From IMG/VR virus record IMGVR_UViG_2681813227_000023, positions 1 through 22,725 of that record: DNA of 22,725 nt. One strand, given 5' to 3'. Positions within the stretch are counted from its first letter, which is position 1. Every line of letters starts with the position of its first letter. A program made the position numbers and the translations under genes. A model generated the notes under the pieces. The model searched no databases and was not told where the DNA came from. It saw only the letters and a list, made by a program, of their open reading frames with translations. This DNA comes from a virus. Taxonomy: Duplodnaviria > Heunggongvirae > Uroviricota > Caudoviricetes. Below are positions 7,918 through 10,860 of this stretch, one piece after another.

Positions 7918-8454
7918 ATGGAAAGTAATATCAAAGGGTTAGTTGCCGCCGGGCATGAGATGGCTTCGGAACTGAAAGCAGAATGTGGTGCCGTTGATAT
8001 GCGTAGTGTGGCAAAGCTGATCAGCGATTTGGCAACGCAACTGGAAGTGCAACTGGTGCGTGCTAATGCGCTGGCCGAAGACCAGCAGAAAGCGATTGAG
8101 TCAATTAAGCAGGCTGATGCGGCTGTTAAGTTGGCACACGAGAAGTTTTCAGCGCTGGCAGCGGAGAATGCGGCATTTAATGATATAAACGCATGGTGTA
8201 AAACAGACGCATTCAGCAATATGTATCGTGAATTTAAAACTGCTGAAGCTGTTGGTTGTTGCAACATTGACTGTATGCATGACGCAATGGTTGTCGCAAT
8301 CATGCACGCACCTGAAGCACCAGCAACAGATGCTTTTCTGGATGAAGTGCGGGCGCAGGGCGTGGAGATGTTTGCTGAGTGTGCATACACACTTGAACAT
8401 CATGATCACGCAGTAGCCTTCGCCGCTGAGCTTCGCAAAGGAGGCAACCAGTGA
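7918..8454 (+). CDS. Hypothetical protein (178 aa), possibly ead/Ea22-like accessory protein
   Basis: ATG with GAGGGTAAAG SD; coiled-coil-like N-terminus and Cys/His-rich C-terminus. Coupled to the next gene. Confidence 0.45.
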   Translation: MESNIKGLVAAGHEMASELKAECGAVDMRSVAKLISDLATQLEVQLVRANALAEDQQKAIESIKQADAAVKLAHEKFSALAAENAAFNDINAWCKTDAFSNMYREFKTAEAVGCCNIDCMHDAMVVAIMHAPEAPATDAFLDEVRAQGVEMFAECAYTLEHHDHAVAFAAELRKGGNQ

Positions 8455-9167
8455 GCAAGATTGACTATCAGGCACTGCGTGAAGCGGCAGAAAAAGCAAC
8501 GTGTGGTGAGTGGTCGCTCGAATATGGAGAGAGCCGATTTGATGGTGATGATGCGCTAATTCATCGTGAAGTTGCTGGATATATTCCTATTTGCAGAATT
8601 GAAGGAGCGCATCCTGAAAGCGGTTTCGATGAAGATTTCCAAATGGAACAGCAGGCCAATGCTGAATTCATCGCCGCAGCCAATCCGGCTACCGTCTTGG
8701 CGCTGCTGGATGAGCTGGAAAGAAACCAGCAATACATCAAAAGCCGTGATCAGGAGAACGAGGATATTGCGCTAACGGTAGGGAAACTGCGTGTTGAGCT
8801 GGAAGGCAAAGACAGCAAAATAGCCAATCTTACCGCCGAACGCGATGCTCTTCGTGAAGGTGAGATGGGCGACGCTAGGCATAGCAACACACGGGCCGCA
8901 ACTGATATCTACTTCCAACTGGTCGAGGAGTGCGAAATTCCTGCTGGCGGATCTCTGGTCGAGTACGTTGATGATATGCGCGAGAAGCTGGAAGCCGCAG
9001 AGAAGCGCATTGCAGAACTGGAAGCACGGGAAATATCGCTCCCAGAACGTAGCAGTATGCTTCATCGAACAGATTTTCACGATGATTACCAAACGGTAAT
9101 GGCATACAAAGTTTCTGAAGTCATCGATGCAATCCGCGCTACTGGCATTCGCATCAAAGGAGAGTGA
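8451..9167 (+). CDS. ead/Ea22-like family protein (238 aa)
   Basis: Segment ...ANAEFIAAANPATVLALLDELERNQQYI... and coiled-coil organisation recall lambda Ea22-like proteins of lambdoid prophages. This is a recalled similarity, not a search result. Confidence 0.55.
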   Translation: MSKIDYQALREAAEKATCGEWSLEYGESRFDGDDALIHREVAGYIPICRIEGAHPESGFDEDFQMEQQANAEFIAAANPATVLALLDELERNQQYIKSRDQENEDIALTVGKLRVELEGKDSKIANLTAERDALREGEMGDARHSNTRAATDIYFQLVEECEIPAGGSLVEYVDDMREKLEAAEKRIAELEAREISLPERSSMLHRTDFHDDYQTVMAYKVSEVIDAIRATGIRIKGE

Positions 9168-9168
9168 G

Positions 9169-9360
9169 ATGATCGGACAAATATCAATTGTTAGACCGGG
9201 AGCATGTGACGATCGCGAAATACGAATAATTATTCGTCTGGCGATGGGGAAAACAATAACAGCTCTCATTACTCCAGAAAATCTCGCATTAGCGTTAACA
9301 GGAAAGTCAGACCTACCAGTAGACATAAAGCTGCGAAATATTGAGATTAAAGTGAAATAG
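9169..9360 (+). CDS. Hypothetical small protein (63 aa)
   Basis: ATG 9169 two nt after the upstream stop with AAAGGAGAG SD; AT-rich sequence. The ORF-track start at 9127 is a longer alternative. Confidence 0.4.
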   Translation: MIGQISIVRPGACDDREIRIIIRLAMGKTITALITPENLALALTGKSDLPVDIKLRNIEIKVK

Positions 9361-9362
9361 TT

Positions 9363-10322
9363 ATGAATACTCTTACCAAAGAATGGTTACAGAACACGAT
9401 TACCAGCATTGAGTCAGCACGGGATGAAATACCGTTCGGACTCGATGAAGATCAAAACAACATGCTTACCGCATTAAAAATTGCACTGGCATCGCTGGAA
9501 GCAAAACCAATAGGTGCTTTCCACATTGCAGAACAGCAGGTCGATGGCACAAGTGACTACATCAAGGATGGGGAATGGCCTATTGATAATGGGATTATTG
9601 AAGTATACGCCGCCCCTCCAATGCCAGTAGTACCTGAAGAAAAACCAATGCCCAACCATCTTAAAATGTACGCGGTCGATGCTGTTGCCGCTATTGCAGA
9701 GGTGAGAGGCTGGAATGCCTGCCGAGCCGCCATGCTTCATGCCGAGCCTGTAAGTAATAGTGATGAGTTACCGCTGGACTATCTGCAAGGCCATAAAGAC
9801 GGTCTGGAGTGGGCGGCGCAACAGGCAGAGGCCAATCATCCGCAAACAGGTGACTGGTTGTACGATGACCCAATCGAGCTTGCCAGGGCGATTCGCAAAG
9901 GTCCGGATATTCCTGAATTTAAGTCAGTATCTGTTGATGAGGATGATAACTTCTACTCGTGGTTTGGCAGGTTCTGGTATGAAAATTATCAGAAAAATAA
10001 TTACACAACATCTGCAAAACAGATGCTTGGTACGATGGCTGAATTTGCCTATAGGGCAGGTAGAGAGTCGGCAGCGCTGGCTGGCAACTCTCCGGGAACT
10101 CAGGATAGTTGGATAAGCTGTAGTGATCGAATGCCTGAAAAGGGCCAGAACGTGCTTATTTCTGTGAATTTCGATAGCTCTCTGGTTGAACCGCTAATAT
10201 GCTCCGCACGCTATACCGGAAGCACCTTTCGGCGCGGAGATGCAACGATTAAGCCGGGTAATGGTATTGAGCAAGCAACTCACTGGATGCCGCTACCAGA
10301 ACCGCCGCAGGAGGCGAAATGA
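9363..10322 (+). CDS. Phage protein with DUF551-like C-terminal domain (319 aa)
   Basis: C-terminal ...WISCSDRMPEKGQNVLISV...ATHWMPLPEPP resembles the DUF551 phage domain; AT-rich N-terminal part. Confidence 0.55.
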   Translation: MNTLTKEWLQNTITSIESARDEIPFGLDEDQNNMLTALKIALASLEAKPIGAFHIAEQQVDGTSDYIKDGEWPIDNGIIEVYAAPPMPVVPEEKPMPNHLKMYAVDAVAAIAEVRGWNACRAAMLHAEPVSNSDELPLDYLQGHKDGLEWAAQQAEANHPQTGDWLYDDPIELARAIRKGPDIPEFKSVSVDEDDNFYSWFGRFWYENYQKNNYTTSAKQMLGTMAEFAYRAGRESAALAGNSPGTQDSWISCSDRMPEKGQNVLISVNFDSSLVEPLICSARYTGSTFRRGDATIKPGNGIEQATHWMPLPEPPQEAK

Positions 10323-10579
10323 TGGATGTAAAAGAGAAGGTTTTGCAGGTGATGCGTTCCCGGGCTGCCCTGCAAGATAAAGCTCTCGGCGGGGAATATC
10401 CATTCAGGATGGCAACCTGGAATCTGCGGTTGGCAATGGAGAAGGAATTTCCTGATGAAGAATGGCGTTCGGCAGATTTGCGCAAAATTCTTATGGAGCT
10501 GGCTAAAGACGGAACAGTATCCAAAGATACCTATGCCAGCCGGATTGGTCAGGCGGTATGGAGACTGGAGGTGCGGTAA
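10319..10579 (+). CDS. Hypothetical protein (86 aa)
   Basis: ATGA overlap with the upstream stop; TAATG overlap with the downstream start. No recognisable domain. Confidence 0.45.
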   Translation: MMDVKEKVLQVMRSRAALQDKALGGEYPFRMATWNLRLAMEKEFPDEEWRSADLRKILMELAKDGTVSKDTYASRIGQAVWRLEVR

Positions 10580-10860
10580 TGGCTAACCTGCAACTTGCCG
10601 TCAAAGGTGAATACTTCGATGCCATGATTCGCGGGGAGAAAACGGAAGAGTATCGCCTGTGTAATGACTATTGGAATAAGCGAATTATGTTCCGGGAGTA
10701 TGACCGCCTGATTATCACAAAGGGATATCCGAAGCGCGACGACTCCAGTCGCAGAATTGATGTTCCGTATGGAGGATATGAAGTGAAAACAATCACACAC
10801 CCCCACTTCGGTGATAAACCGGTAAAGGTATACGCGATAAAGGTGAATATTGATGGCTAA
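10579..10860 (+). CDS. ASCH-like / DUF3850-like phage protein (93 aa)
   Basis: MANLQLAVKGEYFDAMIRGEKTEEYRLCNDYW follows the DUF3850/ASCH-like pattern (K.EYF.A...G.KT.E.R.ND). Confidence 0.5.
   Translation: MANLQLAVKGEYFDAMIRGEKTEEYRLCNDYWNKRIMFREYDRLIITKGYPKRDDSSRRIDVPYGGYEVKTITHPHFGDKPVKVYAIKVNIDG

Follow-up and report, generated by a model that had tools for sequence, protein, structure and literature searches.

A hypervariable early-operon slot in a phiV10-like Escherichia coli prophage, probably filled with exchangeable gene cassettes

We have analysed a block of six open reading frames (ORFs), positions 7,918 to 10,860, in a viral DNA of 22,725 nucleotides (IMG/VR record IMGVR_UViG_2681813227_000023), the whole of which is referred to here as the window. 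The best DNA matches of the window are the Uetakevirus phages phiV10, PAS61 and O157 typing phages 9 and 10 and, judged by these matches, the source phage is a phiV10/epsilon15-like (Uetakevirus) E. coli prophage. A flank order of DnaT-like, P-like and DUF1064 genes, variable genes, ASCH gene, regulator and terminase is common to the window and the Uetakevirus matches. The six ORFs are situated between replication genes on the 5' side and the conserved regulator and terminase on the 3' side, within the following features.

6898..7251, + strand: DUF1064 / PD-(D/E)XK-like gene, 117 aa, left conserved flank; weak PF06356 match, phrog_190 (E=2.9e-37)
7248..7856, + strand: HNH endonuclease with zinc fingers, 202 aa; phrog_1271 (E=3.7e-23) and HNH-domain matches
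7918-8454, + strand: EaE-like protein, 178 aa; phrog_492 (E=5e-51)
8451-9167, + strand: Ead/Ea22-family coiled-coil protein, 238 aa; PF13935 (E=1.9e-33)
9169-9360, + strand: 63-aa protein of the HK620 HkaF type; phrog_1222 (E=8.4e-39)
9363-10322, + strand: mosaic protein with C-terminal DUF551 domain, 319 aa; PF04448 at residues 249-316
10319-10579, + strand: predicted winged-helix protein, 86 aa; phrog_2814, NCBI name 'eaa protein'
10579-10860, + strand: predicted ASCH-fold protein (fold and motif), 93 aa, quasi-conserved last gene of the slot
10853..11191, + strand: zinc-finger protein, 112 aa, right conserved flank; phrog_536 (E=1.6e-54)
11241..11258, + strand: terminator-like hairpin with T run, 3' of the regulator gene, from a consensus scan only

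The six tightly packed or coupled + strand ORFs described in the initial annotation are present and are real genes, because phage homologues exist for all of them (each has a PHROG family match, E-values 8e-39 to 5e-78), variation at codon position 3 is dominant and independent gene callers are concordant, the ORF lengths being reproduced by gene calls in public assemblies. Variable sites among relatives at codon positions 1/2/3 of the + frame number 10/4/30 in the 63-aa gene, 12/10/31 in the 86-aa gene and 33/21/69 in the ASCH gene, and all six proteins are found unchanged in public assemblies. The junctions, read in order from the sequence, are GTGA, TGAgATG, TAGttATG, ATGA and TAATG, and the ASCH gene overlaps the downstream regulator gene by 8 nt. 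Antisense ORFs at 7830-8390, 8772-9326 and 8149-8499 and an overlapping + frame ORF at 9760-10116 were rejected as genes, having no family match, as was an antisense ORF at 10549-10878, which matches phrog_20945 but shows the substitution pattern of a non-coding frame. A repeat search of the block gave nothing beyond codon repeats of the coiled-coil type and short pairs attributable to chance.

A consensus scan of the + strand detected no sigma-70-like site between 7900 and 10600 and no strong terminator-like site in the block interior, and an internal promoter or terminator setting the last two genes apart was rejected on the same scan. The hairpin at 11241..11258, at the place corresponding to a terminator annotated in phiV10, probably marks where the early rightward transcript ends. 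Transcription of the block most likely occurs by read-through from the replication genes, which we infer from the layout because the scan is consensus-only and returned fewer promoter-like sites than were present in shuffled sequence. Translation would proceed by coupling, because consecutive genes of the block in every case either overlap or lie 1-2 nt apart.

Base composition bears out the AT-richer stretch noted initially, GC content being 41.5% at 9170-9600 compared with 49.8 +/- 3.1% for 431-nt windows (lowest 1.5%). This dip is real but modest, with comparable dips elsewhere in the window, and is centred on the 63-aa gene, the AT-richest of the block (GC 39.6%, GC3 31%). The separate acquisition that had been proposed for it is supported for part of the block, as 965 bp of the window (8419-9383) are 93.9% identical to hkaH'-hkaG-hkaF-hkaE' in the leftward 'ea' region of HK620, a P22-like phage. 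This apparently imported module holds the Ea22 gene, the 63-aa gene and the start of the DUF551 gene, and the AT-rich stretch spans just part of it.

The first two ORFs had both been labelled Ea22-like, a label that is correct for the second, whose PF13935 match (116.4 bits, cut-off 27) covers the whole profile, but not for the first, which is EaE-like and ∼42% identical to the P22-type 'EaE protein'. Two Ea22 paralogues are ruled out, as there is no similarity between the two ORFs and the first (7918-8454) has no Pfam match; residues 1-72 alone of the EaE-like protein match the N-terminal part of phrog_250, the later part of which matches the Ea22 ORF. Among relatives, the N-terminal coding part of the EaE-like ORF is conserved, with a conserved island at 7850-8170, and the C-terminal part is variable. 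The Ea22 ORF equals HK620 HkaG in length and gives weak coiled-coil-type side matches (PspA, DUF7310). Lambda Ea22 is pro-lysogenic, with a mosaic domain structure and a tetrameric coiled-coil architecture (PMC7093339, PMC10834534), and variants differ in the C-terminal domain, the presumed seat of specificity (PMC10834534). By an analogy that rests on family membership, the Ea22-type protein of the window may likewise bias the lysis/lysogeny decision.

The 63-aa gene corresponds to HK620 hkaF in length and position, and its assignment as lambda Orf63 was rejected in favour of the HkaF type after a PDB sequence search (E of 10 or less) yielded chance matches only. The DUF551-like label of the fourth ORF is upheld by a full-profile PF04448 match of 77.7 bits (cut-off 22). 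The middle of this gene (∼9750-10050) is missing from all 80 relatives examined, and the exact 319-aa protein, the sole member of its 90% cluster, occurs on 11 contigs.

The 86-aa protein yields no sequence-level match to winged-helix proteins in PDB searches, including one with a family profile. Its AF2 model (pLDDT 93.4, element order H-E-H-H-E-E) has the three-helix bundle and beta-hairpin wing of a winged helix, and in Foldseek the model has its best PDB matches among winged-helix folds, most of which bind DNA (TM 0.6-0.7, E ∼0.02-0.2), including RosR, STIV F93, MecI/BlaI, ORC winged-helix domains and PapI. The model thus points to a small winged-helix DNA binder, encoded by a gene that is found in 102 phage records, 70 of them Stx2a phages.

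For the 93-aa protein, the ASCH-like label is supported by the beta-barrel fold of the model and by a GxKxxExR motif, but not by the Pfam sequence threshold, PF04266 scoring 15.8 bits (E=0.024) where 21.2 are required. A sequence profile built from 37 homologues retrieved no solved ASCH structure. G19-x-K21-x-x-E24-x-R26 is invariant in these 37 homologues and sits between H10-17 and E23-27 of the model, i.e. at the alpha1-beta2 position, as in the glutamate-type ('GKER') ASCH group (TthASCH, EOLA1, ZmASCH; a relative of YqfB), which shares the beta-barrel PUA-like fold and for which the motif has been defined (PMC6803910). In contrast to the window protein, most ASCH proteins are longer than 93 aa; the window protein falls under the Pfam threshold and its family has the further invariant residues T73-H74-x-H76-F77-G78. 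The predicted fold suggests that the product binds or deacylates a nucleic-acid base.

Comparison across relatives confirmed that this is an accessory block between the replication and packaging modules that varies by presence and absence. Three sets of IMG/VR loci were compared, of which the unbiased one consists of 62 relatives picked by the flanking regulator (the Reg113-anchored set), the other two being biased in that they were picked by genes under test. In the 62 relatives the slot is 1684-4158 bp long, and the genes of the window occur there in at least 23 different combinations, none identical to that of the window itself. The EaE-like gene is present in 55, Ead/Ea22 and ASCH in 43 each, DUF551 in 15, the 86-aa gene in 7 and the 63-aa gene in 6, such that each of the six is missing somewhere and one relative is without all of them. 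Across 108 loci, the interval occurred in 81 different sequences and comprised at least 57 ORF clusters. In no phage record and no complete E. coli genome does coverage of 7800-11250 reach 80%, and of the 5426 complete E. coli genomes 3342 match parts of the block.

A mosaic map against 80 relatives indicates flanks that are conserved up to ∼7080 and from 10580 onward, with shared islands inside the block at 7850-8170, 8420-8500, 8690-8800, 10070-10140 and 10270-10320. The 3' half of the DUF1064 gene (from 7081) is divergent from relatives, homology ending at ∼7080, and 7081-7853 of the window stands in place of ∼160 bp of relatives. The HNH gene, between DUF1064 and the block, is outside 7,918 to 10,860 but inside the same variable slot, and occurs in 2 of the 62 relatives. 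The 112-aa gene on the right flank, annotated as a transcriptional regulator in phiV10 (epsilon15 p49 / phiV10 p55 type), is present in 80/80 loci that were retrieved with the regulator itself. Other slot occupants in relatives are Lar (PF14354), Mom-like (phrog_1384), DpdA-like (phrog_887), SAM methyltransferase, NinX and HNH genes, NinX (PF10765) being present in 10 of the loci examined. In one further ASCH locus, L154, which may belong to a phage of another type, a TraR/DksA zinc-finger gene lies immediately 5' of ASCH. On these comparisons the slot is an ordinary, heavily shuffled region typical of phiV10-type prophages, a familiar kind.

The position of the block had been likened to the lambda nin region, which is apt as far as location is concerned: as in lambda and P22, the genes are small, overlapping and dispensable and follow O/P-like replication genes in the same early rightward operon. 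None of the six, however, matches a nin family in Pfam or PHROG; they are homologues of 'ea'/exo-xis genes, belonging to families that P22-like phages carry in their 'ea' region (HK620 hkaH-hkaE; P22 eaA, eaD, eaE) and that lambda and Stx phages carry in the exo-xis region (ea22). HK620 hkaG-hkaF-hkaE has the identical order, Ea22 (238 aa), 63 aa, DUF551, and the mosaic domain behaviour of the window Ea22 and DUF551 proteins resembles that of Stx variants (PMC10834534). The 'ea'/exo-xis genes there lie in the leftward operon between recombination genes and xis/int, whereas here they are rightward and follow replication genes. Closest in layout is phiV10 p46-p54, together with other Uetakevirus (epsilon15 group) phages, where the slot between DUF1064 and the p55-type regulator begins with the EaE-like gene, has Ead/Ea22 within and ASCH last, and consists of overlapping genes in one orientation. 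phiV10 nevertheless lacks the HNH gene, the 63-aa gene, the 319-aa DUF551 mosaic and the 86-aa gene, and shares DNA in patches only (7854-8075, 8450-8500, 8655-8803, 9595-9656, 10077-10112 and 10580 onward).

The best explanation of these observations, to which we assign a probability of about 80%, is that the block is a variable operon tail of exchangeable early cassettes whose products are separate and whose last two genes are not a toxin-antitoxin pair. That pair had been proposed from the layout of the 86-aa and 93-aa genes, which would make the winged-helix protein the antitoxin or regulator and the ASCH protein the effector of a toxin-antitoxin or obligate anti-defence module. As in type II toxin-antitoxin pairs, two small genes overlap (by TAATG) and the first has a predicted DNA-binding fold, followed by a predicted fold known from RNA-binding or RNA-modifying proteins; ASCH is, moreover, directly 3' of the 86-aa gene in 55 of the 79 loci with room downstream. 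The overlap exists but is not distinctive, overlapping stop/start junctions being the rule throughout the window (n≥10). In contrast to type II pairs, the partners are not co-inherited: among 76 ASCH loci with room upstream, only 11 have the 86-aa gene as 5' neighbour, against 32 with a DUF551 gene and 33 with another gene, and in the unbiased set 37 of 43 ASCH-bearing relatives are without the 86-aa gene. Because ASCH mostly occurs without it, a toxin could not persist as ASCH does. The 86-aa gene is itself followed by other, unrelated genes in 24 of the 79 loci and is tied more constantly to a DUF551 gene upstream (75 of 80 loci). PADLOC, Pfam and NCBIfam give no toxin, antitoxin or defence match, and the consensus-only scan of the + strand (7900-10600) assigns the pair no promoter-like site of its own. 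The co-occurrence data thus largely refute the toxin-antitoxin reading, which we consider very unlikely, and the adjacency of the two genes would reflect cassette order.

The statement that none of the six genes has an established function still stands after Pfam, PHROG, PADLOC, NCBIfam and PDB searches. PADLOC and NCBIfam give no match for the six block proteins, PADLOC matching only the neighbouring HNH gene, to the HNH domain of ZorE; PDB sequence searches with all six proteins and with the ASCH and 86-aa family profiles return chance-level matches only. Literature on DUF551, ASCH with anti-defence, exo-xis/Ea22 and YqfB/ASCH offers no experimental function for the exact families other than the lysogeny role of Ea22. 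An invariant core with replication or packaging roles, which the location between those modules and the frequency of ASCH (69%) and EaE-like genes (89%) in relatives might suggest, is refuted by presence/absence, every gene being absent somewhere, and none matches a replication or packaging family; its probability is practically negligible. Functional equivalence to the lambda exo-xis region, with the genes mainly tuning lysis/lysogeny and induction, is possible but on the unlikely side. Ead/Ea22 family membership and the module common to the HK620 ea region favour it, as do published findings that ea22 and neighbouring genes influence lysogenisation and induction (PMC7093339, PMC3824215) and the TraR/Orf73-type gene 5' of ASCH in L154 (PMC9239242). 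Only one of the six genes, however, belongs to a family with such data, the operon is rightward rather than leftward and the 63-aa protein has no similarity to lambda Orf63. Rather unlikely, in our view, is a counter-defence island in which most cassettes, some of the six included, inhibit or evade restriction or other immunity. Consistent with it are the Lar restriction-alleviation, Mom-like and DpdA-like DNA-modification and SAM methyltransferase genes of the slot in relatives, the early-operon position, the extreme presence/absence variation and mosaicism expected in an arms race, and the membership of ASCH among PUA-like folds that read or erase modified bases (PMC12707154). This support is, however, one of location, the six proteins do not match a characterised anti-defence protein in a comparison that had no dedicated anti-defence library, and the sole experimentally studied relative, lambda or Stx Ea22, acts on lysogeny, not immunity (PMC7093339).

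Under the preferred reading of exchangeable cassettes, the block would form a variable and dispensable end to the early rightward operon in a temperate phage of the phiV10/epsilon15 type that is integrated in E. coli. As the comparison shows, every gene, and even every gene segment, can be exchanged independently as a cassette. These cassettes are drawn from an 'ea'/'nin'-type early-gene pool common to P22-like, lambda-like, Stx and phiV10-like phages and swapped by recombination at short conserved islands, namely gene boundaries and conserved domain-coding segments. Some may face stronger selection than 'dispensable' implies, because ASCH, EaE-like and Ea22 genes are present in 69-89% of relatives. 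The EaE-like, Ea22-type coiled-coil, 63-aa, DUF551, winged-helix DNA-binding and ASCH-fold products would act separately rather than as one machine, their collective role probably being early host manipulation, possibly including counter-defence. A host-takeover or counter-defence role is plausible by analogy, because the slot elsewhere holds Lar, Mom-like, DpdA-like and methyltransferase genes.

In its present form the finding is of minor importance, being one more combination of widespread 'ea'/'nin'-type cassettes. The DUF1064-to-p55-type-regulator slot of phiV10-like prophages is, however, hypervariable, well delimited and easily aligned, and its 57 or more ORF clusters, some of an anti-restriction type, make systematic mining and screening possible. 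New here, at the level of predicted folds, are the assignments of two 'hypothetical' families, the 86-aa family to the winged helix and the 93-aa family to a motif-complete ASCH fold with invariant GxKxxExR. N4-acetylcytidine amidohydrolase activity has been reported for other glutamate-type ASCH proteins, none of them from phage (preprint 10.64898/2026.02.27.708502), and the 93-aa protein has in full the lysine/glutamate/arginine octapeptide on which glutamate-type ASCH deacetylases depend. By analogy, it could conceivably be a phage eraser or reader of modified cytosine, removing N4-acetylcytidine from tRNA or acting on modified nucleic acid within an anti-restriction repertoire, although we regard this as quite improbable. 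In the tRNA variant, removal of host N4-acetylcytidine would reprogramme translation early in infection, and erasure of an RNA or DNA base modification by this protein would represent a new type of phage host-takeover function.

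By DNA sequence, the window belongs to a temperate E. coli phage of the phiV10/epsilon15-like (Uetakevirus) type. The top DNA matches for 7800-11250 are phiV10, vB_EcoP_PAS61 and O157 typing phages 9 and 10. Related prophages are present in many E. coli chromosomes. The following gene order was observed:

5183-5998, + strand, DnaT-like initiator
5980-6780, + strand, lambda-P-like protein
6898-7251, + strand, DUF1064
7248-7856, + strand, HNH endonuclease with zinc fingers
7918-10860, + strand, six-ORF block, between the HNH endonuclease gene and the regulator gene
10853-11191, + strand, 112-aa zinc-finger 'transcriptional regulator' (phrog_536)
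from 11232, + strand, small terminase
from 11903, + strand, large terminase

This order on the + strand, with replication genes followed by the block, the regulator and the terminases, locates the block between the replication and packaging modules, as the initial annotation had it. Within the DnaT-like initiator gene, a ∼24-nt repeat with the core CCCAAAAACGGGA occurs six times at 5437-5589 with 18-45 nt spacing. These repeats are iteron-like, comparable to the lambda origin within gene O, and the cluster is a probable replication origin.

The six tightly packed or coupled ORFs were recovered at unchanged coordinates, and public gene calls on identical sequence give the same products of 178, 238, 63, 319, 86 and 93 aa. 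PHROG families match every one of them (E 8e-39 or better), and substitutions among relatives concentrate on third codon positions of the + frame, a pattern indicating that all six are real genes. Pfam confirms the DUF551 label of the 319-aa protein. Two ORFs had been described as Ea22-like, which holds for the second (Ead/Ea22, Pfam) but is ruled out for the first (7918-8454), which is EaE-like instead. The ORFs are joined in order by GTGA, TGA-g-ATG, TAG-tt-ATG, ATGA and TAATG, and ASCH and the regulator overlap by 8 nt. The AT-richer stretch at ∼9170..9600, centred on the 63-aa gene, is real, having a GC content of 41.5% (2.7 sd under the 431-nt window mean, lowest 1.5%), yet comparable dips occur elsewhere in the window at 3421-4080, 4321-4958 and 7500-7947.

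Gene content between DUF1064 and the regulator, an interval referred to here as the slot, is highly variable in related phages. IMG/VR loci were gathered with the flanking regulator as bait, a selection unbiased as to block content, and restricted to the 62 loci also holding DUF1064. The interval spans 1684-4158 bp in these loci, which carry EaE-like (55), Ea22 (43), ASCH (43), DUF551 (15), 86-aa (7), 63-aa (6) and HNH (2) genes. The accessory nature proposed for the block was borne out by this comparison across related prophages, as at least 23 combinations of the window's genes are found and one locus lacks all six, while the window's own combination occurs in none of the 62. The interval takes 81 different sequence forms in 108 loci, and its ORFs fall into at least 57 clusters. 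No match covering at least 80% of the 3.45-kb query was detected among 50,697 phage genomes and 5,426 complete E. coli genomes; partial matches are present in 3,342 of the latter, and about 11 public E. coli assemblies carry the exact arrangement. Temperate enterobacterial phages are known to have a hypervariable early accessory region, and the block is of this kind; its cassettes are likewise known, and their combination has not been seen in sequenced phages.

Homology with 80 relatives is unbroken to ∼7080 and again from 10580, surviving inside the block only as islands at 7850-8170, 8420-8500, 8690-8800, 10070-10140 and 10270-10320, while 9750-10050, the middle of the DUF551 protein, has a counterpart in none of the 80 related loci. 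Break points therefore lie both at gene boundaries and within genes, at conserved domain-coding segments, the latter in agreement with the published domain mosaicism of Ea22 variants (PMC10834534). Separate acquisition of part of the block is supported by 8419-9383, comprising the end of the EaE-like gene, the entire Ea22 and 63-aa genes and the first DUF551 codons, which is 93.9% identical to hkaH'-hkaG-hkaF-hkaE' of the P22-like phage HK620, whereas phiV10 and the window have only short patches in common. In HK620 this stretch is located in the leftward 'ea' region. Thus, the likeness to the lambda nin region holds for position but not for content, which is of the 'ea'/exo-xis type. The DUF551 family is extremely diverse, with 8000 of 8000 scored candidates above threshold and the listed 90% clusters being, almost without exception, singletons; the 319-aa protein is the sole member of its 90% identity cluster and occurs on only 11 contigs. 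The conserved islands would be the sites at which recombination exchanges cassettes. Overall, the block is both variable and mosaic, its cassettes independent and its genes coupled; the initial observation was sound and its accessory, separately acquired reading right.

The TAATG overlap of the 86-aa and ASCH genes, which had suggested a toxin-antitoxin-like pair, is present but not distinctive, as overlapping or tight junctions are the rule throughout the window. Retrieval with the 86-aa protein gave 80 loci, in which ASCH lies directly downstream in 55 and other genes in 24, and DUF551 lies upstream of the 86-aa gene in 75. Among another 80 loci, collected with ASCH, the neighbour upstream of ASCH is DUF551 in 32 cases, the 86-aa gene in 11 cases and a different gene in 33, including DUF4752, Lar-like and TraR/DksA-like genes; the TraR/DksA zinc-finger gene immediately precedes ASCH in one locus, which may be of another phage type than phiV10. 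The pairing was unsupported: the 86-aa gene is absent from 37 of 43 ASCH-bearing phages in the unbiased set, Pfam, NCBIfam and PADLOC give no toxin, antitoxin or defence family for either protein, and a consensus-only scan of the + strand detected no promoter-like site ahead of the pair. Judged by this distribution, the two genes do not need each other, and their adjacency follows from the usual place of ASCH at the end of the slot. In most relatives (IMG/VR loci L086-L165) genes ahead of ASCH end in ...(N/G)RG-stop with an 8-nt overlap onto the ASCH start, an ending common to unrelated genes (DUF551, DUF4752, Lar-like and others); the last codons of the upstream gene therefore belong to a conserved ASCH-side boundary. 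This boundary, at 10579 in the window, is likely a recombination joint. The window's 86-aa gene, joined by TAATG, differs here from most relatives.

The 86-aa protein, named 'eaa protein' at NCBI, is confidently modelled (pLDDT 93.4) as a predicted winged-helix fold, the closest structural matches (TM 0.6-0.7) being winged-helix folds, DNA binders for the most part, including RosR, STIV F93, MecI/BlaI, ORC winged-helix domains and PapI. Its gene is conserved at 94-99% protein identity across very different phage types, namely 70 Stx2a-converting phages, a P1-labelled record and two 47-kb phages (records include MH445381, NC_031924 (IME207) and ON637251 (phage 6947)), and thus travels independently of the phiV10-type backbone.

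The 93-aa protein scores under Pfam's ASCH threshold. Its model (pLDDT 84.9) predicts an ASCH fold with a complete motif, G19-x-K21-x-x-E24-x-R26 being invariant in 37 homologues and placed at helix-1/strand-2, where GxKxxExR is the ASCH signature (PMC6803910). An enzymatic role is a possibility. Deacetylation of N4-acetylcytidine in tRNA, requiring the motif lysine and glutamate, is reported for glutamate-type ASCH proteins (2026 preprint, 10.64898/2026.02.27.708502); as the proteins tested there were non-phage, such activity of the 93-aa protein is a lead rather than a finding. A 109-aa antisense ORF across the ASCH gene (10549-10878, - strand) matches phrog_20945 (E=4e-51), and substitutions among relatives number 69/21/33 at its codon positions 1/2/3; this family was therefore probably assembled from wrong-strand ORF calls.

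Transcription would reach the block by read-through within the early rightward operon, since a consensus scan detected no internal signals and found a terminator-like hairpin at 11241-11258; phiV10 has an annotated terminator at the corresponding place. This hairpin falls within the longest small-terminase ORF (TTG start 11232). Public gene calls disagree on the length of the small terminase (224 or 197 aa), and its true start therefore probably lies beyond the hairpin. The block proteins may act separately, in early host manipulation; the only relative studied by experiment, Ea22 of lambda or Stx phages, favours lysogeny (PMC7093339). In relatives (loci L101, L070, L093, L005, L228 and others) the slot also holds Lar (PF14354), a Mom-like protein (phrog_1384), a DpdA-like transglycosylase (phrog_887), a SAM methyltransferase, NinX, further HNH genes and several unannotated families. 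The Lar, Mom-like, DpdA-like and methyltransferase genes make counter-defence or nucleic-acid modification a plausible theme, judged from gene location, and the slot, being compact and alignable, could be mined for candidate counter-defence genes.

Along with the HNH gene, the window has a DUF1064 gene whose 3' half is divergent. The sequence at 7081-7853 stands in place of ∼160 bp in relatives, homology returning just 5' of the HNH stop codon, and 7081-7856 looks like the insertion of a free-standing homing endonuclease whose flank was co-converted. Only two of the 62 relatives have it.
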